Source: Escherichia coli (lineage in GTDB: Bacteria; Pseudomonadota; Gammaproteobacteria; Enterobacterales; Enterobacteriaceae). Taken from it: a stretch of 64,000 nucleotides of DNA. The position numbers and the translations under genes are program-made. The notes beneath the pieces are model-generated. The model was not told the origin of the DNA. It was given only the letters and a program-made list of their open reading frames with translations, and did no database searches. Shown here piece by piece: positions 7,431 through 60,504 of this stretch (the first letter of the stretch is position 1; each line of letters starts with the position of its first letter). Where the stretch lies: the NCBI RefSeq assembly GCF_024223415.1, contig NZ_CP100500.1; one strand, 5' to 3'.

Positions 7431-9268
7431 TAAACTGCCCTCACAATATAATTAAAAGCGATATTGCGCGGTCTGATCGCTATCCATCTGTCTTTTTCAT
7501 TACTCACCAGCTTACCGGCTCTGGCTATTGCCCATCTGTCAACTGGTTTTGTGCCGTACAGGATGCCGTTACCGGTTCTGGGTTGATCAGGGGTTATGTT
7601 TATGATGTCGTTATCATGTGATGCAAATGAAATCCCTGCCTGAATATCTGCACCTCCCGCTACGCCGTGGTACGCCTGTATGGAGGTACAAATATATGTT
7701 GCTTCCTGTGTGGATAACAATAAGCGTCCCCTGTCAATCATTCGCAGGTCATCCCATCCACGAATAAATTCCCCGCGCAAATCTGGTAGCCTGAGGTCAG
7801 GGTAGGCCACCGCCAGTTTTGGGTATTTTGTACGCGTGAATGCGGCACCGTTGCACTGTAACCACCCCTCAGGTGGTCTTGACGAAGGCCACGGAACGGG
7901 TACGCCAACTGGCAGCGTCGAGCCTTCTCCTAAACCAAGGTAATCAAGAATATCTTTTATGCTTTGTTTACCCATGATGACGCGGGCAACAGACGAAAAA
8001 ACAGGGGCGTCTGTGATCTGAGCCCAGCGATGAGTGTGGGCTGCCGAGGCTTTGCTGTTGGCAAGGTCATACGCAGCTTTAACAGCTTTTGGTGTGGCCG
8101 CCAGCATTTCGGAATTGCTGTTTGTGGCGCTGCTTAGCTGTACGATGCCTTTGCGTCCGGTGGTTGCATCCTGTCCTGTATACTTGCTCGTCAGCATATC
8201 GTGTAAGGCTTTAACCGCTTTGGGGGTGGCGGCCTCAGTCTCTGACTCACTGTTTGTGGCACTGCTCAGCTGTACGGTGCCTTTTGCCGTCAGCGAGGCT
8301 GATGGCACACCTGTTATCTGATTCCACGGGTGGGTGTGGCTGGCGGGTGCTTTACCGGCTGCAAGGTCATATGCAGCCTTGACGGCTTTTGGTGTGGCCG
8401 CCAGCGTTTCGGAATTGCTGTTTGTGGCGCTGCTCAGCTGTACGATGCCTTTGCGTCCGGTGGTTGCATCCTGTCCTGTATACTTGCTCGTCACCATATC
8501 GTGTAAGGCTTTAACCGCTTTGGGGGTGGCGGCCTCAGTCTCTGACTCACTGTTTGTGGCACTGCTCAGCTGTACGGTGCCTTTTGCCGTCAGCGAGGCT
8601 GATGGCACACCTGTTATCTGATTCCACGGGTGGGTGTGGCTGGCGGGTGCTTTACCGGCTGCAAGGTCATATGCAGCCTTGACGGCTTTTGGTGTGGCCG
8701 CCAGCGTTTCGGAATTGCTGTTTGTGGCGCTGCTCAGCTGTACGATGCCTTTGCGTCCGGTGGTTGCATCCTGTCCTGTATACTTGCTCGTCACCATATC
8801 GTGTAAGGCTTTAACCGCTTTGGGGGTGGCGGCCTCAGTCTCTGACTCACTGTTTGTGGCACTGCTCAGCTGTACGGTGCCTTTTGCCGTCAGCGAGGCT
8901 GATGGCACACCTGTTATCTGATTCCACGGGTGGGTGTGGCTGGCGGGTGCTTTACCGGCTGCAAGGTCATATGCAGCCTTGACGGCCTTCGGTGTGGCGG
9001 CCAGTGTTTCAGAAGTGCTGTTTGTGGCGCTGCTCAGTTGGGTGAATCCTTTTTCTGTCAGTGTCGCGTCAGGGTGGTTACGGGAACGTGCGTGTTCAGC
9101 CAGTGACTGTGCGACTTCCTCCGTTTTCTTCTTCAGCCATTTCGTCCTGTTTGCCAGTTGCCGGGGGGCTCGATTTGATATCCCGTCTGCACCACCCAGA
9201 ACCGGATCTGATGTCTCCAGTTGATAGATATTTTCTTCCCACTTTTCTGTTTCATTCAGGTTTCCCAT
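7430..9268 (-). CDS. tail fibre protein (Mu S-like) with internal 100-aa repeats
   Basis: Repeated SSATNS..ETLAATPKAVKAAYDLA..HTHPW motifs; GGGAG RBS before ATG at 9268. Confidence 0.85.
   Translation of the reverse strand: MGNLNETEKWEENIYQLETSDPVLGGADGISNRAPRQLANRTKWLKKKTEEVAQSLAEHARSRNHPDATLTEKGFTQLSSATNSTSETLAATPKAVKAAYDLAAGKAPASHTHPWNQITGVPSASLTAKGTVQLSSATNSESETEAATPKAVKALHDMVTSKYTGQDATTGRKGIVQLSSATNSNSETLAATPKAVKAAYDLAAGKAPASHTHPWNQITGVPSASLTAKGTVQLSSATNSESETEAATPKAVKALHDMVTSKYTGQDATTGRKGIVQLSSATNSNSETLAATPKAVKAAYDLAAGKAPASHTHPWNQITGVPSASLTAKGTVQLSSATNSESETEAATPKAVKALHDMLTSKYTGQDATTGRKGIVQLSSATNSNSEMLAATPKAVKAAYDLANSKASAAHTHRWAQITDAPVFSSVARVIMGKQSIKDILDYLGLGEGSTLPVGVPVPWPSSRPPEGWLQCNGAAFTRTKYPKLAVAYPDLRLPDLRGEFIRGWDDLRMIDRGRLLLSTQEATYICTSIQAYHGVAGGADIQAGISFASHDNDIINITPDQPRTGNGILYGTKPVDRWAIARAGKLVSNEKDRWIAIRPRNIAFNYIVRAV
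7437..7469. repeat. 33-bp inverted repeat, copy B (inside the last codons of the tail-fibre gene)
   Basis: GCCCTCACAATATAATTAAAAGCGATATTGCGC; partner of 6771-6803. Confidence 0.7.
7985..9000 (-). repeat. in-frame tandem repeat, 300-bp unit, about 3.4 copies
   Basis: Near-identical 95-aa antisense ORFs at 8034, 8334, 8634 and 8934 reveal the 300-bp period; sense strand encodes repeated 100-aa units. Confidence 0.7.
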
Positions 9269-9270
9269 AA

Positions 9271-9849
9271 TCAACTTCTCCCGTGGTTATAACTGCCATC
9301 ATGGATGGCGGTATTGTTATAGCGAATGGCCACAGACTGATACTCCAGGCTGGCCAGATGGCAGCGGGCCGGTGCAAATGCAGTGAGCGTCTGACGCAGC
9401 ATCGCGGCCTGATCGTTAGTAATGGGCTGTTTCAGAATAACGCGATAAACCGCCCAGCCTGCTGTATCTCCATGAACAAACAGTCCGTTATGGCTGCGAT
9501 TGCCGTCGTAACTGAGACGACCTGTGCCTTCAATCAGATCCACTTCACCAAAGCCAAAACGGCGGATAACTTCCCGGATTGACCACGGCGTCCCTTTATA
9601 CCGGTGCAGTTCGATGGCTGCTTTTATAAGCATGCGGCGAACATCGTCCGATTCCGCCAGCTCCCAGCCATCGCCAGACAGTGAGAACTGCTCGCCCAGC
9701 CATGGCAGCGCGGAACTGTCGACGATATCGACGAGAAAGACCATCAGTACGCTCAGGTCGATGTTATCCAGCCGTCCTGCCAGTCTTCCCAGCGTCCTGA
9801 GACTGATATCACCCTCAAGCGGTGGCGGGAGTTGTAATGGCTCAGTCAT
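9271..9849 (-). CDS. baseplate/tail protein (P2 gpI-like, Mu gp48-like)
   Basis: 192 aa; position between baseplate J and tail fibre. Confidence 0.75.
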   Translation of the reverse strand: MTEPLQLPPPLEGDISLRTLGRLAGRLDNIDLSVLMVFLVDIVDSSALPWLGEQFSLSGDGWELAESDDVRRMLIKAAIELHRYKGTPWSIREVIRRFGFGEVDLIEGTGRLSYDGNRSHNGLFVHGDTAGWAVYRVILKQPITNDQAAMLRQTLTAFAPARCHLASLEYQSVAIRYNNTAIHDGSYNHGRS

Positions 9850-10945
9850 CAGACACTCCAGTCATGTTAAGTGTGATCGCCGTACAGTTTGCCCATTCGT
9901 TTTCTGCCACCACCCTCAGTGCCGGTGTCACCAGCTCAACCTGGTACACCCCGGAAACGGACAATGCACTGATAATCTGGCTGGGGACAATATCACGCCC
10001 CAGCGCGGTGGCACGTGATGCCACCCAGTTCTGTATGGCGCTGTTAGCGTTGTCCTTTACCAGCCTTGCATCCTGGTCACGATAGATCGTAATCCTGGCT
10101 TCAATGGTGTAATCCACCTTCACTGGTGTTTTAGCCCGCACGGTATCAGTGAGTGGTCTGACTTTTTCGTCCGAACAGAAACTCTCTACCAGCGTCAGAA
10201 CACCGCTGTCCGGCAGGCCGGTGCTCAGCAGCGGATAAATTTCTACTGTGCCGGGAACCGGGGAAAGTACAGCAACATCGACAATGCCGGGATGGGCCTG
10301 CATGGCATGAAAGCGGTATGCGCCACGGCTTCCGGCATTGGTGAATGACTCCGGGGCCAGCCTGATACGCTCCCGGAGCCTGTCATCGTCTTCCTGTTCT
10401 GAACCGCCGGAGCTGGCCGTCAGATTGCTCACCAGCAGGTCGACGTTATCAATCTCATCGAGTAACTGACTGACCTGCGCAGGTTGCCAGCCGTTACCAG
10501 CAGTACCGGGTTCGGTACAGGTGGCCGTGACATTGACCAGTAGCAATCCGGCCTTCAGTACCACATCTGTATCGGTGGCAAAAATAACGCTGTCGGAAGC
10601 GCTGACGCGGGTGCCTGCCGGGATCAGCACATCAATGGCCAGTGCCTCATCCACAGAGAACTGGAGCGTGGTGGTGGCAGGCTGCGCGGCAAGGCGGTAT
10701 ACACCGACCAGTTCACCGAGGTAATCAATCATCGGCTCACGGGCAAAGGCGACAAGATTCTGCTTTGCTGCCTCCTGTACCGCAACCCTGACCAGCATTT
10801 CGCGATAGGCCCACAGGTCAATCAGCAGACGTTCTGCCTGTGCCGGGTACAACGTTTTGCCGGTATCCGCTTCATATTTCGCAATTATTTCTGCCGTGAT
10901 TTTATCGGCATCGCGTTCAATAAAATCGGGTTCTGTCAGCGCCAT
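9842..10945 (-). CDS. baseplate J-like protein (Mu gp47-like)
   Basis: 367 aa; baseplate J family sequence and position. Confidence 0.85.
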   Translation of the reverse strand: MALTEPDFIERDADKITAEIIAKYEADTGKTLYPAQAERLLIDLWAYREMLVRVAVQEAAKQNLVAFAREPMIDYLGELVGVYRLAAQPATTTLQFSVDEALAIDVLIPAGTRVSASDSVIFATDTDVVLKAGLLLVNVTATCTEPGTAGNGWQPAQVSQLLDEIDNVDLLVSNLTASSGGSEQEDDDRLRERIRLAPESFTNAGSRGAYRFHAMQAHPGIVDVAVLSPVPGTVEIYPLLSTGLPDSGVLTLVESFCSDEKVRPLTDTVRAKTPVKVDYTIEARITIYRDQDARLVKDNANSAIQNWVASRATALGRDIVPSQIISALSVSGVYQVELVTPALRVVAENEWANCTAITLNMTGVSDD

Positions 10946-49886: not shown

Positions 49887-50588
49887 TATAATATGACTCG
49901 ACAATGTTATTTCAAAGTCTGAGTGATGATTTTTCTCTCAGGCAGTATGTTCCTCAATAAGGATGAGAATGTATTCTGTTCATTGGCATATGCATTTATA
50001 TTCTAATGAGCTGAATTTTATAAAGGTTGTGGCTATTCTGGAGTATAAATATTTTTTTTCATTAGACATGAAAGTCTATATGATGGTGTATTAATATTTT
50101 TAGCAATTATGAACGGTTTGTCATGAACCAGTGACCAATTCGTTATGGTGGTGTGCGGTTATATGGTACCTGCTTATGGTGTTATGTTTTTGTCACGTTT
50201 TTGCTGGGGGGTAACATATGTATTGTTTATTTTATATGGTTTATTAAAAAGCTATGAACTCTTTTCAGAGTAATCTCTCACAGTTTTTTTTAATGTTTTA
50301 AAGTTGGTAGTGGTTTGTTATTTTATTTAACTATGTGTTCTTGAAAAAGAACAATGTTTTAAGTGTTGGTTTTTTATCCTTATGATTTTTTAAATGAACT
50401 ATTCAACAATTTACGCTGTGCTGTCCTACAGTTAAAGAGCGTTAATGTAATATCAAATGTAATTATTACGGACAGGCTGAAATCTGGTTGTGTACATCAG
50501 TTGGTGCAAAAAGGCTTATCAAAGTACTGAAATAATAGTAAGTACAATAATAATGATGAATATTGCTACATGGAGATTGGATTTGCCC

Positions 50589-51494
50589 CTATATTTCCAG
50601 ACACCTGTTATCACTTAACCCATTACTGGCTTGCTGCCGTAGATATTCCCGTGGCGAGCGATAACCCAGTGCACTATGCGGATGCCATTCGTTATAATGC
50701 TCGAACGCCTCTGCAAGGTTCTTTGCTGCCGTTAACCCGTCTGGTTTGGGCATGACACTGATGTAGTCACGCTTTATCGTTTTCACGAAGCTCTCTGCTA
50801 TGCCGTTACTCTCCGGACTCCGCACCGCCGTGCTCTTCGGTTCAAGCCCCAACATCCGGGCAAACTGCCGTGTTTCATTAGCCCGGTAGCATGAACCATT
50901 ATCCGTCAGCCACTCTACTGGAGACGCCGGAAGCTCGTTGCCGAAGCGGCGTTCCACCGCTCCTGGCATGACGTCCTGTACTGTTTCACTGTTGAAGCCG
51001 CCCGTAGTGACCGCCCAGTGCAGTGCCTCACGGTCACAGCAGTCCAGCGCGAACGTGACTCGCAGTTTTTCTCCGTTATCACAGCGGAACTCGAACCCGT
51101 CAGAGCACCATCGCTGATTACTTTCTTTCACAGCCACTCTGCCTGTATGTGCCCGTTTCGATGGCGGTACAGCAGGTTTTCGCTCAAGCAACAGCGCATT
51201 CTGGCGCATGATCCGGTAAACACGTTTGGCATTGATCGCAGGCATACCATCAAGTTCGGCCTGTCTGCGAAGCAGCGCCCATACCCGACGATAACCATAC
51301 GTGGGCAGCTCTCCGATAACATGGTGTATACGGAGAAGCACATCCGTATCATCAGTGTGACGACTGCGGCGGCCATCCATCCAGTCATCGGTTCGTCTGA
51401 GAATGACGTGCAACTGCGCACGCGACACCCGGAGACAACGGCTGACTAAGCTTACTCCCCATCCCCGGGCAATAAGGGCGCGTGCGCTATCCAC
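50589..51494 (-). CDS. insD: IS2 transposase OrfB (DDE domain)
   Basis: 301-aa IS3-family integrase-core sequence. Confidence 0.85.
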
Positions 51495-52030: not shown

Positions 52031-52306
52031 GTGGCTTCCATTTCCATCAGATGTCCTTCCTGCTCCGCTACTGAAGGCGTGGTGCGTAACGGCAAAAGCA
52101 CTGCCGGACATCAGCGCTATCTCTGCTCTCATTGCCGTAAAACATGGCAACTACAGTTCACTTACACCGCCTCTCAGCCCGGTACGCACCAGAAAATCAT
52201 TGATATGGCCATGAATGGCGTCGGATGTCGCGCCAGTGCACGCATTATGGGCGTTGGCCTCAACACGGTTTTACGTCACTTAAAAAACTCAGGCCGCAGT
52301 CGGTAA
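52031..52306 (+). CDS. insA: IS1 InsA
   Basis: 91-aa zinc-finger protein typical of IS1. Confidence 0.85.
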
Positions 52307-52728
52307 CCTCGCGCATACAACCGGGCAGTGATGTGATTGTCTGCGCTGAAATGGACGAACAGTGGGGCTACGTCGGTGCTAAATCACGTCAGCGCTGGCT
52401 GTTTTACGCGTATGACAGGATACGGAGGACGGTTATGGCGCACGTATTCGGTGAACGCACTCTGGCCACACTGGAGCGTCTTCTGAGCCTGCTGTCGGCC
52501 TTTGACGTGGTGATATGGATGACGGATGGCTGGCCACTGTATGAATCCCGCCTGAAGGGAAAGCTGCACGTAATCAGCAAGCGATATACGCAGCGAATTG
52601 AGCGGCATAACCTGAATCTGAGGCAGCACCTGGCACGGCTGGGACGGAAGTCGCTGTCGTTCTCAAAATCGGTGGAGCTGCATGACAAAGTCATCGGGCA
52701 TTATCTGAACATAAAACACTATCAATAA
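52225..52728 (+). CDS. insB: IS1 InsB (expressed as an InsAB' frameshift fusion)
   Basis: Overlapping -1 frame ORF with IS1 transposase sequence. Confidence 0.8.
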
Positions 52729-52743
52729 GTTGGAGTCATTACC

Positions 52744-53432
52744 AGGAACGAGTACAGGAAAAATTCAGTTCTTTTTTAATTGCCTTTAAAGATGGTGTCA
52801 TCGGAGGGATACTGTCAGGTATTACCACAACGCTGTTAAATATATTCCTGACGACGGAAAGAATGATTGTCCGGCTTATCAGGGAAATGTGGAACAACCT
52901 CGTTCAGGCCTTTAAAGTCCTGGTATTTAACCCGGAGGGATTATCGCCGGGGCAGTTAGCCAAAGCGGTCACTAAACTGATAGCAGCAGGTGTGGCTGTT
53001 GCCGGTGGGGTGATGATAAATGAGGCGATGGCGCAGATCCTTATTTTTCCATTTGGTTCAGAGCTTGCTGCCTTTTGTGGTGCGCTGACGACAGGTATTC
53101 TCGGGCTGGTGATGAATTATTATCTCGAATATAGCGAGGTTATGCAGCGGGTATGGGCATTTCTGGACAAATTTAAGGACAAATTCCAGCGGTCACTGGA
53201 ATACTTTCAGGCAGTCAATGCTGAACTTGATCGCTATCTTGTGGAACTTACTGCACTGGAATTTTCTGTTGATGCTGCCGCGTTAAATCATTTTTCACTT
53301 CATCTGGATAGCGTAAACAGTGAGATAGAGCGCGGACTTCTGCTGAGAGAAGAAGTCAGCCGACGAGGGATTGCGTTGCCGTTTGAGTCAGGAAATGTGG
53401 CTTCTGTTCGTGACTGGTTAAATAAGCGATGA
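52744..53432 (+). pseudogene. 3' fragment of a gene truncated by IS1
   Basis: Reading frame is open from the IS1 boundary; no start codon or RBS until internal ATG 52863. Confidence 0.5.
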
Positions 53433-54032: not shown

Positions 54033-54166
54033 CGTTCCTGTTTACGCCGTTACATTTGTGGCGGCGGATGATACCTGTTTTATGATTATTCAGAAAAATG
54101 TATTTACCTGTCACGGCATGTTCAGCGAGCGGCGCCGGACAGAAATATCGCTTTTACTCAATTATT

Positions 54167-55771
54167 ATGAAAATTAATCTTCCATTCATACACTGGCCAC
54201 GGATTAGCAATGATAAGCGCCTCGTGTTATCAGTGGTTGTCTTTATCCTTTTTAATCTCCTTGTATCCTCAGGAGCGCATCTGATTTACCGGATATTATT
54301 CTTTATCCTGGCGCTTCTTATTATTAAGGCAATGAAATCGCTTACGTTGCGTTTGATTCTTGCCTTCCCGTTCACATTACTGACTGCTGCAGATATCAGT
54401 ATCAGCCTGTATTCATGGTGTACATTTGGCACAACATTTAATGATGGTTTTGCAATCAGTATCCTTCAGACAGATCCTGATGAAGTAATAAGAATGTTCA
54501 GGATGTATGTTGTTTATGTTATCGCATTTATTATCCTCTTTTTATTGTTCTTCTGTTCAGCAATAAATAAAACGTCCTCATTGCCATCGGAAAAGGTCAC
54601 GGTAATTACATTTTTATTGTTAATTACAGTAACGTTATATTCTTCCTTCCAGTTTGCGTTGAAGAAACAGTATCAAATAAATGAAGTTGATCCTTACATA
54701 GTCGCTTCCCGGTTTGCCACATATACCTCTTTCTTTAATCTGAACTATTTTGCACTGGCCGCAAAGGAGCATCAGAGATTAATGACGATTGCTGATACCA
54801 TACCTCACTACGATCTGGTGATTACGGATAACAACACTGACGTATTTGTTCTGGTGATTGGTGAATCTGCAAGGACTGATAACATGTCCATTTACGGGTA
54901 TTCGCGCCCTACCACACCAGAGCTTCAGAAACAGAAATCACGACTGAAACTGTTCACTCAGGCAATCAGCGGGGCACCTTATACCGCTCTTGCGGTACCG
55001 CTGGCATTATCTGCTGATACCGTGCTGCATCATGATGTTCGCCGTTACCCCGATAATATTATCAACATGGCGAATCAGGCGGGGTTCGATACCTGGTGGC
55101 TCAGTGCGCAGTCCGCTTTCCGACAGAACGGAACGGCTGTGGCCAGTATCGCCATGCGGGCCAGAAACAGAATTTATGTCAGAGGCTATGATGAATTACT
55201 GCTCCCACACCTGGCTGAAGCACTGAACAGTAATCCGGGGAGCAGGAAACTGATTGTTCTGCATCTGACGGGCAGCCATGAGCCAGTCTGCAGTAACTGG
55301 CCCAGAGATAAAGCCGTGTTTAAACCGCTGGATACAGAAGAAGTCTGCTACGATAATTCCATTCATTATACCGACAGTTTGTTGGGACAGGTTTTCACCA
55401 TGCTGGAAACGCGTCAGGCATCCGTCATGTATTTTTCAGATCATGGCCTGGAGTATGACCCGACAAAAGAGCATGCCTATTTTCATGGCGGAATAAAACC
55501 CAGCCAGCAGGCTTATCATGTTCCGATGTTTATCTGGTACAGCCCGGCACTGGGAGAGCATGTCGATCGCCAGACGGTGAACAGCGTTTTTTCCACTGCG
55601 TATAATGATTATCTGATTAATGCATGGATGGGCGTAACCAGACCGGCTCAACCGAAAACGCCGGAGGAGGTGATTACCCGCTGGCAGGGGAAATCCGTGG
55701 TTTTTGATGCCAGTCATAACGTGTTTGATTACAAAGTATTACGAAAGAACTTTAATGAACTCCAGGAATAA
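54167..55771 (+). CDS. phosphoethanolamine transferase family protein (sulfatase-like)
   Basis: N-terminal multi-TM region then sulfatase-type domain (VIGESARTD ... LHLTGSHEP ... SDHG); start at ATG 54167 is approximate. Confidence 0.7.
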   Translation: MKINLPFIHWPRISNDKRLVLSVVVFILFNLLVSSGAHLIYRILFFILALLIIKAMKSLTLRLILAFPFTLLTAADISISLYSWCTFGTTFNDGFAISILQTDPDEVIRMFRMYVVYVIAFIILFLLFFCSAINKTSSLPSEKVTVITFLLLITVTLYSSFQFALKKQYQINEVDPYIVASRFATYTSFFNLNYFALAAKEHQRLMTIADTIPHYDLVITDNNTDVFVLVIGESARTDNMSIYGYSRPTTPELQKQKSRLKLFTQAISGAPYTALAVPLALSADTVLHHDVRRYPDNIINMANQAGFDTWWLSAQSAFRQNGTAVASIAMRARNRIYVRGYDELLLPHLAEALNSNPGSRKLIVLHLTGSHEPVCSNWPRDKAVFKPLDTEEVCYDNSIHYTDSLLGQVFTMLETRQASVMYFSDHGLEYDPTKEHAYFHGGIKPSQQAYHVPMFIWYSPALGEHVDRQTVNSVFSTAYNDYLINAWMGVTRPAQPKTPEEVITRWQGKSVVFDASHNVFDYKVLRKNFNELQE

Positions 55772-55867
55772 TTCATTAAAGTAATTTACTTCGCTATCCT
55801 TTTTCCAGTTACTCACAAAGAAAAATATTCAGAAAATAATTCCCGGGTTGGCAGCCCGGGATGATTA

Positions 55868-56143
55868 CTATTTTAATGGATTGTTAATCTTTGCATATTC
55901 AAACGGGCTGATACATTGTTCTCTGTTCGCATCCAGAAAATCTGCCCACCACTGTAGCATCAGTCGACGTTCTTCCAGATGTTCTGCTTTATGGATATAC
56001 GCAGCACGTACACCATTACGCTCCTGATGACTCATCTGACGTTCCACTGCATCGCGGGACCACAAACCTGATTTAATCAATGCACTGCACGCCATCGCCC
56101 GGAATCCATGGCCACAGACCTCTTCCTGCGTATTGTATCTCAT
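55868..56143 (-). pseudogene. C-terminal remnant of a tyrosine integrase
   Basis: ..GHGFRAMA..RQMSH..R..YIH..LQWWADFLD.. parallels the C-terminus of the intact integrase at 59068-60252; no N-terminal domain. Confidence 0.6.
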
Positions 56144-56451
56144 CAGTCTCAGTGCGTTATTGACCGTATTTTAACTAACGAGCTTGTGCCTGATTACCAA
56201 TAATTATCAGTTCATATTTTATGCAGACTTGTGCCAATCACTTGTTTTGAAAGAGGTTCTAAGATTCGTTGCATGCATTCTTGACCCTCAATGGTAATGT
56301 CTCGTTAAATATGATAGATATTAGCCGTAATTTTATTTTAGCGGGGTCGGTAAATTGGGGTGGAATTAGTCGATAAAAATATTAGAATACACTATTTTGC
56401 AGGCAAAATAGTGATATGATACATTTTTGTGTAAATTTATAAGGAGATAAG

Positions 56452-57375
56452 ATGGATAAGTTAAGGGCGCTAATTAGCCGAGCATCTAAGCTTTATAACA
56501 GGAATATAGATCATCTTCCAATAACTTTAGAACTAATCGAGTATTCAATGGGGCTTTTGGATAAGAAAGCAAGTTACGGTTATTTTGGTTCATTTGAAGG
56601 GAAAAAAGAAATAGACTACTATGCATTCTTTAGTAATAACGAGATCTCAAGACCTATTAGAGATGATTTATATATCAGAGATGTAAGTATCTATAAGAAA
56701 TTAAGTGACAACTTGTTTGTCGATTTAAAACAGTTCCGTTCTGTCTGGAGTTCAGATAAATCAATAGTAGCAAATAAAATTATATATACATCAGTTATGT
56801 CAGTTGCCTGCGCTTTTGATTTGTGGAAGAAAGGTAGTAGAAAAACACCTGGTACATTTTTTGAGATTTATATTGCTGCTCTATTGAAAGTAATGCTTCC
56901 GAATGAAGTTTTTTCAAAGCATATCCCATTGATTGATTCGATGAAAAATGATGAGGGGCTTAGAGATTCGGCGAATATTTCTACTGATCTGGTAATAAAA
57001 AGCCGCGCAAATGTTAATCGCGGAGTAGTTATCCCATTAAAAATAACAACAAGAGAGCGTATTGTTCAGCCATTTGCTCATCAACGAATTCTGGATTCAT
57101 ATTTTGGGAATGGTTTTTTTCATTCTTTCTTGGCATGCATTAGTGAAACTCAACAAGATAAGTTTAATCGAGAAGTAAACCATATATGTGTTCCTGGAAC
57201 AATACGATTGTATCAGAAATATTTATCAAGTATTGCGGGAATATATTATTGTGATATTCCAGAGAGATATTTACAAGCTGATTTGACCAGTATAATACCG
57301 GTCAAATCAATGGGGGAGTTTTTGTCAGATATAAATGATTTTTTTATGGAAATAGCTGAATCTGATCCTCATTAG
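56452..57375 (+). CDS. hypothetical protein, candidate restriction endonuclease
   Basis: 307-aa ORF in AT-rich DNA, convergent with and overlapping the cytosine-5 methyltransferase gene by 32 bp; no recognisable family by eye. Confidence 0.6.
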   Translation: MDKLRALISRASKLYNRNIDHLPITLELIEYSMGLLDKKASYGYFGSFEGKKEIDYYAFFSNNEISRPIRDDLYIRDVSIYKKLSDNLFVDLKQFRSVWSSDKSIVANKIIYTSVMSVACAFDLWKKGSRKTPGTFFEIYIAALLKVMLPNEVFSKHIPLIDSMKNDEGLRDSANISTDLVIKSRANVNRGVVIPLKITTRERIVQPFAHQRILDSYFGNGFFHSFLACISETQQDKFNREVNHICVPGTIRLYQKYLSSIAGIYYCDIPERYLQADLTSIIPVKSMGEFLSDINDFFMEIAESDPH

Positions 57376-58468
57376 TCTTCTCAACAGGGTTTTGATAGTT
57401 GCTTTTTTCATAATTTTGTTTATTAAGACATTTAATAATTGCTGTTCCTGCCGCTTTAGCTACTGGCGGCGGAACAGCATTCCCAATTTGTAATCTTATG
57501 GCATCTCTTTTACCATAAAACCGATAGTCAACAGGGAATCCTTGTAACATTGCACCCTCTCTAAGAGTTATAGCTCTGTTCTGAGAAGGATGTCCATATC
57601 TGCCTCTGGTGAAGCTATCAAATCCCGCAGTAATTGTTGGACATTGTTTATCCCATTCAAGCCTCCCGTACACGTCAGGCCATCCGCCGGAGTTAGTATC
57701 AACATTTTGATGGCATTTTAGTCTCAAATCATGCGGAATATCCTTCCACCCCCCTCCGGGGGGAACATAAGAGAACCTTTCTTCATTAAGTTTAGTTATT
57801 TTACACTTAATATGATTAGGTATCTCGCAATGTTCACTATAATCGTCAGGAGGGGGAGGAAGATTACCAATAACATCTTTGATAGTAAGTTCGTTATCAA
57901 CTTTCTCCAGTTTAGGATAATCGCAGTTCTCAGATTTATCTATTCCGATCATAATAAAGCGCCCTCTCTTCTGGGCAACGCCAAAATCTGAAGAGCAAAT
58001 GAAAAAAGTGAATATGTTATATTTAAATAATTTCTCTTTTACTTCTCTTATTAAATCCTGTCCTCTCTTTTGTCCAAAAATTTCGACATTTTCAAACAGA
58101 AAAGCCCGGGGGTTTAGCTCATTTACCAGTCTGGAATATTCCAGTACTAACTTATTTCTTTCATCATTTAACAGATGAGCTCCTTTTCTTTGTTTGGAAA
58201 AGCCCTGACATGGCGGCCCGCCGCTAAAAAGATCCAGTCGGGAGTTTATTCCCGCTTTGTCTAAAAGAAACTTACCGCTAATAACCGAAGCATCTAATTG
58301 AAGACAATGCCCTCCAAGATTATTATTATATGTTTTCACGGCATCCTCATTGATATCAAATGCTAATTTGATATCGAACCCCGCTTGCTTAAGCCCAAGG
58401 GACATTCCTCCAGCACCACAGAAGCCTTCAATGCATGTAAGTTTTTGAACAGTATCAGCTTTACTCAT
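57344..58468 (-). CDS. DNA cytosine-5 methyltransferase
   Basis: Motif I FCGAGG, motif IV PPCQGFS, motif VI ENV, motif VIII QKRGR, motif X GNAV. Confidence 0.85.
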   Translation of the reverse strand: MSKADTVQKLTCIEGFCGAGGMSLGLKQAGFDIKLAFDINEDAVKTYNNNLGGHCLQLDASVISGKFLLDKAGINSRLDLFSGGPPCQGFSKQRKGAHLLNDERNKLVLEYSRLVNELNPRAFLFENVEIFGQKRGQDLIREVKEKLFKYNIFTFFICSSDFGVAQKRGRFIMIGIDKSENCDYPKLEKVDNELTIKDVIGNLPPPPDDYSEHCEIPNHIKCKITKLNEERFSYVPPGGGWKDIPHDLRLKCHQNVDTNSGGWPDVYGRLEWDKQCPTITAGFDSFTRGRYGHPSQNRAITLREGAMLQGFPVDYRFYGKRDAIRLQIGNAVPPPVAKAAGTAIIKCLNKQNYEKSNYQNPVEKTNEDQIQLFP

Positions 58469-59067
58469 GTTAACTCACTTAATGCTCATTAATCTTCCTA
58501 GTATAACGATATTTATCAAACAAAACCATAGCTACATTTTAAACTAAAAGTAGCTAATAAGAACGATTGAATGACTTAATTTATATAAATAAGATATCCA
58601 GTATTGATACATCATGTGTTCAGCATGATGTATGTGCAACTGAAGCATCATTCGAAGTTTTCCTCAATATTCATATTCTGCATATATGCTATTCCAGATA
58701 ACTGGCCTGCCATTCGATATTATGACGAAGCCTGATTATGCTAATGCATCATACGCTATAACCCGGTATTTATGGCCACAGATATTTTGGATTGTGTCAT
58801 CTCCTGTAACCTTAAGGGGGGGATTGACGGTGTTTTATCTGCTTGCCCTGTGAGTACATGCATTTCCATAACATTCAGGCTATTTTCACCTACCGGAATC
58901 TGAAGTTCAGTCAGTATGCCTGCAACCTGTTTATGGTGTTGAACAGGGTTCAATAGCAGAATTTGGGCTTCTGGAGTGAGTTCAGAATGTGTTGGTAAAT
59001 CAAGCCACAATAAAACCGTTCAGTGGTCTGACTGGATGGCTCGTTATTATATCCACAGAGCTCTCAT

Positions 59068-60252
59068 TTATAGTGCGCACCTGGAGAGCGAATCAATGTA
59101 ATCTGCGTACCATTGCATCATTTCACGACGACCATCCAGGTACTGCGCATGGTTATAGGTACCCCTGATGGAATTTTTATCCACATGAGCTAACTGCATT
59201 TCAATCCAGGCAGAATTAAAGCCCTGTTCGTGCAGAATGGTACTCATGGTGTGACGAAAACCATGACCGGTTGCCCTGCCATCGTAACCGATACGTTTGA
59301 GCACCATATTGATGCTGGCTTCGCTCATTGGCTTGTTGATATCACAACGTCCCGGAAAAACCAGCCGGTATTGCCCGGAGAAAGTTTTGAGCTGCAGCAG
59401 AATGTCAGTGGCCTGTCGTGACAGTGGTACGACATGTTTACGTCGCATTTTCATGCGGCTTTCAGGGATTGTCCACAGGGCATTATCAAAATCAATTTCT
59501 GACCATTCAGCGAACCGTAGCTCAATGGTTCTGAGACCTGTCAGAAGCAGAAGATTTGTCGCCATGCGGGTAACAGGACTGCCATGATATTCAGCGAGCT
59601 TCCGGATAAAAGCTGGGAGCTCATCTGCTCTCAGGTGAGGGAAATGCGCCGCTTTTGGTGCCGCCAGTGTACTGGTCAGTTCAGATGCCGGATTGACAGT
59701 GGCTCGTCCGGTGGCGATGGCATAACGAAAAATCTGATTACAGTATTGGCGTACCTTACGAAGTTTCTCCAGCGAGCCACGTTTTTCTATGCGGCGCAGA
59801 ATTTCCAGCATTTCCAGCGGGAGGATATCAGTAACGCTTCGTTTGCCCAGATACGGAAAAATATCTTTATCCAGAGCCTCCAGTACGCTTCTGGCGTAAC
59901 TTTCAGACCATGACAAAGATTTATGCTGGTGCCATTCCGTAGCGAGGGCATGGAACGTATTGGTGGCAGAGATTTTCTGAGTGAGTTTTTCCTTTCGCTT
60001 CTTTTCGCCCGGGTCACCACCTTCGGAGATGATTTTTCGGGCATCGTCGCGTTTGATTCTGGCCTCAGCAAGGGAGACGTCGGGATAGACGCCGAGGGCC
60101 AGTTTTTTCTCTTTTCCTGCTATCCGGTATTTAAGCCGCCAGTAGCGGGCTCCCGTGGTTTTTACCAGCAGATATAAACCACGTTCGTCAGAGAGTTTAT
60201 AGTCTTTTTCTTTAGGTCTGGCTGTTTCGACCTGTCTGGCTGTAAGTGCCAT
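59068..60252 (-). CDS. P4-type tyrosine integrase
   Basis: MALTARQVETARPKEKDYKLSDERGLYL... N-terminus and HxxR...Y catalytic region; AGGAG RBS; adjacent to the tRNA-Phe 3' end. Confidence 0.85.
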   Translation of the reverse strand: MALTARQVETARPKEKDYKLSDERGLYLLVKTTGARYWRLKYRIAGKEKKLALGVYPDVSLAEARIKRDDARKIISEGGDPGEKKRKEKLTQKISATNTFHALATEWHQHKSLSWSESYARSVLEALDKDIFPYLGKRSVTDILPLEMLEILRRIEKRGSLEKLRKVRQYCNQIFRYAIATGRATVNPASELTSTLAAPKAAHFPHLRADELPAFIRKLAEYHGSPVTRMATNLLLLTGLRTIELRFAEWSEIDFDNALWTIPESRMKMRRKHVVPLSRQATDILLQLKTFSGQYRLVFPGRCDINKPMSEASINMVLKRIGYDGRATGHGFRHTMSTILHEQGFNSAWIEMQLAHVDKNSIRGTYNHAQYLDGRREMMQWYADYIDSLSRCAL

Positions 60253-60320
60253 ATGGGGGCTCCTGAAACTGACTGAACACAATGAGCCCCCACCGGTGCC
60301 CCCAATGAACGCTTGATTGA

Positions 60321-60428: not shown

Positions 60429-60504
60429 TGGTGCCCGGACTCGGAATCGAACCAAGGACACGGGGATTTTCAATCCCCTGCTCTACCGACTGAGCTATCC
60501 GGGC
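60429..60504 (-). tRNA. pheV: tRNA-Phe (anticodon GAA)
   Basis: 76-nt sequence identical to E. coli tRNA-Phe with CCA end; named pheV from yqgA/speC synteny. Confidence 0.95.

Follow-up and report, generated by a model that had tools for sequence, protein, structure and literature searches.

Two convergent genes lie beside a P4-type integrase gene at a tRNA-Phe gene of Escherichia coli (contig NZ_CP100500.1). One of them, M, encodes a cytosine-5 methyltransferase; for the other, R, which encodes a protein of 307 residues, the preliminary description recognised no family. It was proposed that the two form a Type II restriction-modification (R-M) system with R as the nuclease, or else that R is a different methylation-coupled defence effector. 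We examined the pair within a window of 64,000 nucleotides, the whole stretch of DNA that was analysed. Our reading is that it is very probably a two-gene Type IIP R-M system of the Kpn2I family, which an integrase-only islet at tRNA-Phe carries as cargo.

The islet at tRNA-Phe

The features of the islet are collected in Table 1. The locus as first delimited, from position 56144, takes in about 300 bp of non-coding DNA 5' of R. As had been noticed earlier, R and M converge with a 32-bp overlap of their 3' ends and form an AT-rich block, the GC content of the pair being 33–39%, compared with 49–52% in adjacent genes and 53% in the window (R, 0.332; M, 0.391; integrase, 0.492; speC, 0.521; entire window, 0.532). 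In a sliding analysis, it was 0.32–0.42 over 56250–58750 and about 0.47–0.55 from 59000 on. The islet was also rightly called integrase-bounded, with an intact P4-type integrase on one side and an integrase remnant on the other.

Table 1. Features of the islet, with positions in the window
Feature	Position	Strand	Remarks
intB remnant	55871..56185	-	C-terminal residues 316-420 of a second P4-type integrase, 90% identity
R upstream region, conserved	56383..56451	+	SD AAGGAG (56441-56446); -10-like TAGAAT (56383-56388); promoter inferred
R gene	56452..57375	+	307 aa; from the ORF list
Hairpin	57279..57309	-	15-nt arms, in the 3' coding region of R; inverted repeat I2
R/M overlap	57344..57375		32 bp; convergent 3' ends
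M gene	57344..58468	-	374 aa; from the ORF list
M upstream region, conserved	58469..58590	-	SD-like AAGTGAG; -10-like TATACT (58505-58500); TTGATA (58519-58514); promoter inferred
Integrase remnant	58586..58932	-	P4-type, frameshifted, residues ~288-400; abuts the M upstream region
intA	59068..60282	-	intact P4-type tyrosine integrase, 404 aa; upstream of and co-oriented with M
tRNA-Phe (GAA), pheV	60429..60504	-	attachment site of the island

Beyond tRNA-Phe lie yqgA and speC, a gene content found also at another locus (L014); hence, the locus is pheV. IntA matched the PHROG 1 integrase (9.1e-76), and its sibling copies carry the domains Arm-DNA-bind_3, Phage_int_M and Phage_integrase. DNA 98% identical to intA adjoins tRNA-Phe in many E. 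coli genomes. The remnant between intA and M showed 34–44% identity by tblastn to residues 288–400 of two P4-type integrases, and positions 58728–58932 gave a 71% match to DNA that other genomes of E. coli have annotated as a partial integrase. Judged by these alignments, the remnant is what is left of the integrase that first lay upstream of M, and decay of that integrase has immobilised the islet here. In other strains, intB heads an eptA-like/leoABC island at pheU. Three integrase genes or remnants are thus stacked at pheV. No second tRNA-Phe 3' end (attR) was present within the window, so the outer border of the island either lies beyond the window or has degraded.

Identity and inheritance of R and M

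When R was compared with PDB sequences using phmmer, residues 1–299 matched entry 6EKR (E 3.7e-126), which is Kpn2I (bioRxiv 10.1101/694703, together with the Foldseek match below). The same residues matched positions 1–298 of the 301 in the PADLOC model PDLC03502 (REase_II; E 6.5e-132). PADLOC and PDB identify at once a protein for which no family had been recognised. Searches of R against Pfam, NCBIfam, and PHROGs gave no match, and this accounts for the missing assignment in the preliminary description. No homologue of R was found in the phage collection searched.

R is about 63–65% identical to Kpn2I (64.8% by blastp to the R protein of plasmid locus L002). The latter is the 6EKR chain save for two K-to-A positions, and L002 can thus in effect be taken as the Kpn2I system. 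The identity is 47% over residues 1–100 and 74% over residues 171–300, the catalytic and recognition half. The AlphaFold model of R (pLDDT 91.3, pTM 0.91) had 6EKR as its best Foldseek match (E 1.1e-37, TM 0.89/0.90), and PspGI, PfoI, Ecl18kI, and BsaWI ranked after it. A profile built from 25 sequences of the family reached only 6EKR among PDB sequences and no other CCGG-family enzyme; the link to the latter thus needed the fold search.

Across 25 R homologues, E138, D179, K197, R201, E202, R203, and Q211 are invariant. Kpn2I has Gln at the third catalytic position (PMC6344858), and the catalytic residues of R were assigned from this published residue together with motif spacing. The K197–Q211 spacing is 14, the same as that of K187–E201 in NgoMIV. 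By this assignment, R carries the permuted motif (P)D...K...(E/D/Q) and the Glu of the upstream helix, as D179, K197, Q211, and E138. The R-(D/E)R motif for reading of the CCGG core is likewise present, as R201-E202-R203, which follows just after K197 in the invariant block PLKITTRERIVQP. All 47 of the 47 family-invariant residues are retained in R, which is full length and has no extra domains. Homology and the modelled fold both place R, over its full length, in the Kpn2I family of Type IIP restriction endonucleases.

M matched Pfam PF00145 over its full length (1.5e-56), TIGR00675 (dcm) with 146.5 bits (cut-off 100.65), and PADLOC MTase_II (3.1e-99). The canonical C5-methyltransferase motifs reported earlier could all be located: I (FCGAGG, 16–21), IV (PCQ, 86–88), VI (ENV, 126–128), VIII (QKRGR, 166–170), IX (REGAMLQGFP, 303–312), and X (GNAV, 329–332). 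M is 80.3% identical to the methyltransferase of L002. In the core of the target recognition domain (TRD; residues 215–300), the identity is 92–93% to Kpn2I-type plasmids and 98% to the copy in Escherichia albertii. By sequence, M is a homologue of M.Kpn2I and, next to R and with complete catalytic motifs, its cognate methyltransferase. The profile searches that had been suggested for both proteins thus gave REase_II for R, and MTase_II and PF00145 for M; the family that R matches is that of a nuclease.

The 2.2-kb module at 56383–58590 corresponds to positions 7930–10147 of the E. albertii locus (L003) with 81.7% identity, while the flanks differ. The overlap is likewise 32 bp there (8893–8924). 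Against this copy (dS about 0.9), dN/dS was 0.14 for R and 0.05 for M; the values for R span 0.14–0.26. These ratios indicate that R and M are both under purifying selection. The convergent R-M pair was present in all family loci examined, among them plasmids, E. albertii, Halomonas, and sibling E. coli, a distribution which points to R and M being inherited together in different hosts as a single unit. As a two-gene module, the pair is self-contained and moves alone between contexts.

When 5,426 complete genomes of E. coli were searched with the DNA, none showed the pair on the chromosome; only two 6-kb plasmids matched, at 74%. Members of the protein clusters are recorded on up to 113 contigs for R and 138 for M. 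In a scan of 100,044 species representatives, the back-translated motif PLKITTRERIVQPF matched only 6, a number too small for architecture to be treated statistically. It may be noted that in NCBI, the identical proteins already bear the names 'type II site-specific deoxyribonuclease' (R) and 'DNA cytosine methyltransferase' (M). The R-M annotation is therefore known, and placing the 'unknown' protein as a Kpn2I-type enzyme is mostly an annotation settled.

Expression of the pair and a hairpin near the 3' end of M

No controller (C) gene was detected by tblastn with two plasmid C proteins in or near 55700–59200, and among the ORFs of at least 20 residues upstream of M (58300–59150), none was similar to these proteins. 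The pair is flanked by no other plausible small ORF either, and the M upstream region has no ORF bearing a C-box. Kpn2I-type control by C, in which an HTH gene divergent from M has a C-box at its 5' end, is thus absent at this locus. Nor was a C gene called in the E. albertii, Halomonas, and sibling E. coli loci; E. albertii and Halomonas have the C-less int-M-R order in common with this locus.

A consensus scan detected no sigma-70 promoter before R or M, and hence the promoter elements in Table 1 come from alignment only. The M upstream region is the end of the segment common to the window and E. albertii. The -10-like element of M sits where that of Kpn2I.M does in the alignment, while TTGACC, which we take to be the -35 of Kpn2I.M in the plasmid sequence, has not been conserved. 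The -10-like TAGAAT of R reads TATAAT in E. albertii. The Kpn2I.R promoter is weak and C-independent, and C.Kpn2I inhibits the M promoter by blocking recognition of the -35 (PMC6237814). By analogy with Kpn2I, a weak constitutive promoter presumably drives R. The M promoter here would keep its -10 and be without the TTGACC -35-like hexamer, the element that C.Kpn2I occludes, and read-through may also reach M from the integrase gene, its immediate upstream neighbour on that strand. Over-expression of M is conceivable without C, and restriction would then be leaky. That a well-studied C-dependent system is also found in nature C-less and integrase-linked is of modest wider interest.

On the M-sense strand, the hairpin in the 3' coding region of R lies 35–65 nt past the stop codon of M. 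As M-sense RNA, it has an MFE of -20.4 kcal/mol (z -4.1), and its G-U wobbles pair on this strand only. It is kept in seven distinct Enterobacterales members of the family, with 94.9% of cells paired and three pairs changed on both sides in their alignment. These properties make it a candidate 3' terminator or stabiliser of the M mRNA. The paper on Kpn2I regulation (PMC6237814) makes no mention of a hairpin. An intragenic hairpin with compensatory changes, common to the enterobacterial members, is likewise of modest wider interest.

One speculative idea, which we consider unlikely, is that the chromosomal C-less lineage has swapped the timing provided by a controller for two cis devices. In the first, M lies directly downstream of the islet integrase in the same orientation, and a burst of integrase transcription on entry into a new host would deliver early M. 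In the second, the M transcript would be terminated or stabilised by the hairpin within the R gene, which would also keep antisense read-through into R low. If true, the establishment circuit of an R-M system would be wired to the integration programme of the mobile element itself.

Predicted specificity, alternatives and known systems

Kpn2I is a member of the CCGG family with the target 5'-T|CCGGA (PMC6344858), and the target predicted for R is most likely the same, i.e., TCCGGA cut as T|CCGGA. R would be an Mg2+-dependent PD-(D/E)XK nuclease of this family, acting as a dimer by analogy with its orthodox Type IIP enzymes. The CCGG core would be read by the R201-E202-R203 helix motif, and cleavage would be carried out by the permuted active site D179...K197...Q211 plus E138. 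On the host chromosome, M would methylate a cytosine of this same site, and cleavage would then be confined to unmodified incoming DNA (phage, plasmids). Restriction of lambda-vir by Kpn2I has been observed in E. coli (PMC6237814).

TCCGGA occurs eight times in the window, as against 14.5 +/- 3.8 expected, which is not a clear depletion, and there is no such site inside the R-M module. The sequence of the window thus lends no support to the predicted specificity. Avoidance of TCCGGA and methylation-sensing promoters were also considered and dropped, the count being too weak.

Reading of the outer bases is the chief difference between members of the CCGG family (PMC6344858), and R is only 63–65% identical to Kpn2I, with 47% in the first 100 residues. 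An enzyme of the same family and mechanism that recognises another context around CCGG, e.g., different outer bases, is therefore conceivable, but we hold it to be quite improbable. The R and M specificities must match for the host to survive, and the TRD core of M is 92–93% identical to that of Kpn2I-type plasmids and 98% to that of E. albertii; R, for its part, is 74% identical to Kpn2I in residues 171–300 and keeps all family-invariant residues.

It is less likely still, and to be given little weight, that the system has decayed, leaving M as a functional orphan methyltransferase beside an inactive or silent relic of R. The islet is immobilised among integrase remnants, neither a C gene nor a consensus promoter was found, and the protein cluster holds several truncated R entries, most of them labelled partial and maybe from fragmented draft assemblies. 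Against this, R is full length with 47/47 family-invariant residues and a good SD, its dN/dS is 0.14–0.26, and neither the 32-bp overlap nor the 3' hairpin has been lost. That R is a different methylation-coupled defence effector and not a classical restriction enzyme is extremely improbable, since nothing was found in its favour beyond the silence of Pfam, NCBIfam, and PHROGs, while R shares full-length homology and fold with a characterised, crystallised Type IIP enzyme, has no extra domains, and belongs to a self-contained module travelling alone.

The reading as a Type II R-M system with the 307-residue protein as nuclease is thus the one supported, by homology to Kpn2I, by the conserved residues, and by the M.Kpn2I-like neighbour. 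It is probable that the strain has 5mC at TCCGGA and that it restricts unmodified DNA containing this site, which has a practical bearing on its transformation, its phage susceptibility, and the reading of its methylome.

Like the Kpn2I system of Klebsiella pneumoniae RFL2 (plasmid pKp4.3), the pair consists of a nuclease with the same fold and invariant catalytic and RER residues and a homologous C5 methyltransferase (80% identity, 93% in the TRD core); the genes converge with overlapping 3' ends, the same hairpin lies past the M stop, and the target is presumably TCCGGA as well. Unlike it, the pair has neither a C gene nor a conserved TTGACC before M, its overlap is 32 bp and not the 17 bp of plasmid Kpn2I-type systems, the first 100 residues of R are only 47% identical, and it is chromosomal and integrase-linked, while Kpn2I resides on a small ColE1-type plasmid.

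With the wider CCGG family (NgoMIV, Cfr10I, SgrAI, BsaWI, AgeI, PspGI, Ecl18kI, EcoRII-C, PfoI), R shares the PD-(D/E)XK fold, the permuted D...K...(E/Q) site, and the R-(D/E)R helix reading CCGG. It differs from them in having, like Kpn2I, a Gln where the third acidic residue would be, and by the 25-sequence profile, it has no detectable sequence similarity to members other than Kpn2I.

At integration hotspots of E. coli, there are integrase-only islands that carry defence genes (Hochhauser et al. 2023, PMC10121019). In contrast to these, the original integrase has decayed here, and pheV holds a stack of three integrase genes or remnants. In sibling strains, the adjacent slot holds other defence genes, namely the Mokosh type II MkoC. 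Like the cargo of such islands, the R-M pair is the first to follow a P4-type integrase at a tRNA gene, and among integrase-only islets at tRNA hotspots, it adds one more whose first cargo is an R-M pair.

The gene pair and its kinship to Kpn2I

Both ORFs of the pair, the 307-aa R and the 374-aa methyltransferase M, are full length and, as the preliminary description had it, convergent with a short overlap at their 3' ends. Its observation that the block is AT-rich was also borne out: R has a GC content of 0.33 and M one of 0.39, whereas the integrase reaches 0.49, speC 0.52 and the window as a whole 0.53, and sliding GC was 0.32-0.42 over the pair against about 0.47-0.55 past 59000. Some 6 kb left of the pair is a second strongly AT-rich patch (GC 0.30-0.36).

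Features of the islet and its surroundings (window coordinates)
Feature	Position	Strand	Remark
AT-rich patch	50000-50750		
IS1 copy	52031-52728		InsA/InsB ORFs
189-aa ORF	52863-53432		adjoins IS1
557-aa sulfatase-family protein	54098-55771		
intB'	55871-56185	-	C-terminal P4-type integrase remnant on R side; 91-aa ORF at 55868-56143
R -10 candidate	56383-56388		TAGAAT (TATAAT in E. albertii)
R Shine-Dalgarno	56441-56446		AAGGAG, good
R ORF	56452-57375	+	307 aa
Hairpin	57279-57309		in R 3' coding region
R/M overlap	57344-57375		convergent 3' ends, 32 bp
M ORF	57344-58468	-	374 aa
intC'	58586-58932	-	frameshifted P4-type integrase remnant
intA	59068-60282	-	intact P4-type integrase, 404 aa
tRNA-Phe	60429-60504	-	

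R had been described as having no recognisable family. When it was searched against Pfam, NCBIfam and PHROGs, no match was indeed obtained, but the PADLOC Type II REase model PDLC03502 matched it from end to end (E 6.5e-132), and PDB 6EKR covered residues 1-299 (E 3.7e-126). The latter is the Type IIP enzyme Kpn2I (bioRxiv 10.1101/694703), a member of the CCGG family that cleaves 5'-T|CCGGA (PMC6344858). R and Kpn2I are 63-65% identical overall and 47% identical over residues 1-100. An AlphaFold model of R (25 homologues as input; pLDDT 91.3) had 6EKR as its best structural match (TM 0.89), followed by PspGI, PfoI, Ecl18kI and BsaWI, all of them CCGG-family enzymes. The alignment of 25 R sequences contained 47 invariant columns, including E138, D179, K197, Q211 and the block PLKITTRERIVQP (R201-E202-R203). 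From their spacing and invariance, these residues appear to fit the permuted D...K...(E/D/Q) active site and the CCGG-reading R-(D/E)R motif of the family. The K197-Q211 spacing equals that of K187-E201 in NgoMIV, and the last catalytic position of Kpn2I is likewise Gln (PMC6344858).

For M, Pfam PF00145 was matched over model positions 2-324 of 324 (1.5e-56) and TIGR00675 above its cut-off. Motifs I, IV, VI, VIII, IX and X were located, in line with the canonical motifs noted earlier, and the protein is a complete C5 methyltransferase. It is 80% identical to the M of L002, a plasmid locus whose R is the 6EKR chain apart from two K-to-A positions; L002 is therefore effectively the Kpn2I system, and window M is the cognate partner of R. 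Since identity to that system reaches 93% in the core target-recognition region of M (residues 215-300) and 74% in residues 171-300 of R, the same target is predicted, and TCCGGA is probably the sequence recognised. The whole window holds 8 TCCGGA sites against 14.5 +/- 3.8 in shuffled sequences (at least 8 in 99 of 100 shuffles), a mild deficit, too slight for interpretation over a 64-kb stretch.

Two readings of the pair had been put forward: most simply, a Type II restriction-modification (R-M) system with the 307-aa protein as its nuclease, or else a different methylation-coupled defence effector. The homology and fold shared with Kpn2I, and the cognate M alongside, uphold the former, in favour of which the latter is rejected.

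Control regions and a hairpin past the M stop codon

In the Kpn2I system the controller C.Kpn2I is encoded divergently from M and keeps a strong M promoter repressed by preventing -35 recognition; the R promoter is weak and C-independent (PMC6237814). Unlike Kpn2I, the window pair lacks a C gene: neither plasmid C protein gave a tblastn match near it, and no small ORF in the interval from the integrase to M was similar to those proteins. A -10-like element upstream of M (TATACT in the window, TATAAT in E. albertii, TATCAT in the plasmids) aligns with the hexamer that may be read as the Kpn2I.M -10. The TTGACC read as the M -35 in Kpn2I-type plasmids is not conserved. An intrinsically weaker M promoter may need no repressor. 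When the minus strand between the integrase and M was scanned, no terminator-like site was found.

The regulatory layout differs among Kpn2I-family loci, L030 (2688-3501), L029 (5685-5927) and L022 (4478-4753) among them. C is divergent from M in plasmids and in the Pseudomonas locus L029. At L030 an HTH gene with the orientation of R abuts the R start, and a Vsr gene is close by; neither L031 nor the integrase-linked loci have C.

An inverted repeat with 15-nt arms lies 35-65 nt past the M stop codon, in the M sense. Its M-sense RNA has a folding energy of -20.4 kcal/mol (z -4.1). The hairpin is kept in seven distinct Enterobacterales family members, Kpn2I included (window, L003, L001, L002, L022, L025, L032), and is absent from the non-enterobacterial ones. 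Over the 14 stem pairs the cells are 94.9% paired, and three pairs are changed on both sides: a synonymous Leu TTG to CTG with Lys AAA to Arg AGA (L002, L032), Thr ACC to ACT with Pro CCG to CCA (Pantoea), and the outermost pair from A-U to U-A (window, E. albertii). G-U wobbles pair only in the M sense and become A-C mismatches on the R-sense strand. The hairpin may thus act within the M RNA, as a terminator or as a 3' stabiliser limiting antisense transcription into R; as only seven related sequences bear on it, this reading is suggestive and not proven. The Kpn2I regulation paper (PMC6237814) does not mention the hairpin.

The islet at tRNA-Phe and related loci

The integrase-bounded islet at tRNA-Phe proposed earlier was confirmed, with an intact P4-type integrase and remnants of others. 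Beyond the tRNA gene lie yqgA and speC, so the locus is pheV; the gene content of L014, a sibling E. coli, is concordant. Three integrases are stacked here (intA, intC' and intB'). The 122 conserved bp that precede M directly adjoin intC', which was the islet's own former integrase, and intA comes next. In E. coli SC418, intB is the leading gene of a pheU island that carries the eptA-like gene and leoABC. The simplest history would be serial (tandem) integration at tRNA-Phe followed by deletions, and the stacking suggests that these deletions immobilised the R-M islet.

In sibling E. coli L010 (1450-4965), L011 and L013, a 1171-aa Mokosh type II protein (PADLOC MkoC, E = 0) is encoded between R and the eptA-like gene. 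In others (L014 4123-5166; L007 6124-7344) the protein encoded instead has 347/406 aa and gave faint TPR matches only and none in PADLOC. In L007 this additional gene sits between the eptA-like gene and what is left of intB, segments that just 10 bp part in the window. The interval next to R has the look of a variable slot for defence genes. From the sibling spacing (523-aa, 88-aa and sulfatase-family genes), the 189-aa ORF beside IS1 looks like the C-terminal remnant of an IS-truncated 523-aa gene. The 557-aa sulfatase-family protein could bear on lipid A modification; its homologue in SC418, beside the pheU integrase and before leoABC, is annotated as a (frameshifted) phosphoethanolamine transferase.

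The wider R family comprised 444 proteins at E <= 1e-5, and R and M were convergent with overlapping 3' ends at all family loci examined. On small ColE1-type plasmids, namely L002 of Klebsiella grimontii (4.5 kb) and L001 of E. coli (6 kb), R and its convergent M are accompanied by a divergent HTH gene. Window 56383-58590 and E. albertii L003 7930-10147 are 81.7% identical and have only R, M and their short upstream regions in common. The E. albertii M has the orientation of a 420-aa P4-type integrase gene and starts out 133 bp beyond the stop codon of that gene, and the copy adjoins lptF/lptG plus adjacent ADH- and DUF87-family genes, a site that we take, from the K-12 map, to be leuX. E. albertii loci L003-L006 have the 82%-identical module behind another integrase. 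The int-M-R order recurs in Halomonas with a 100-bp gap and an R of 50% identity. With the Escherichia integrases, that of Halomonas shares no more than 26-28% identity. What the pair is linked to is therefore the position right after an integrase and not any one integrase lineage.

Many draft E. coli assemblies encode the same R and M proteins, at pheV as well as at pheU, under the NCBI names 'type II site-specific deoxyribonuclease' and 'DNA cytosine methyltransferase'. A search of 5,426 complete RefSeq E. coli genomes turned up no chromosomal copy of the pair, and the phages searched had none. The intA-M-R unit is at pheU (dsbD/cutA side) in L010, L012, L016 and L021, and at pheV (yqgA/speC side) in L014, L015 and L017-L020.

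Predicted function and comparison with Kpn2I

Comparison with the E. albertii copy (dS ~0.9) gave dN/dS values of 0.14 (R) and 0.05 (M), so purifying selection acts on both genes. In E. coli, lambda-vir is subject to restriction by Kpn2I (PMC6237814). M would methylate TCCGGA on the host chromosome, and R, probably as a dimer, would cleave unmethylated T|CCGGA of incoming DNA by means of D179/K197/Q211/E138 and Mg2+. A weak constitutive promoter would drive R. M would have a promoter of its own, perhaps supplemented by transcription running through from the integrase gene upstream. Type II R-M systems act as addiction modules stabilising their carrier DNA, and the pair would double as such a module for the islet.

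The pair is a Kpn2I-family nuclease with its cognate C5 methyltransferase, conserved and intact, which move jointly as a two-gene module without a C gene. It belongs to a known family, in which it is uncharacterised although its annotation is already correct; the lack of C, the linkage to an integrase and the hairpin are minor variations on the Kpn2I-type system.
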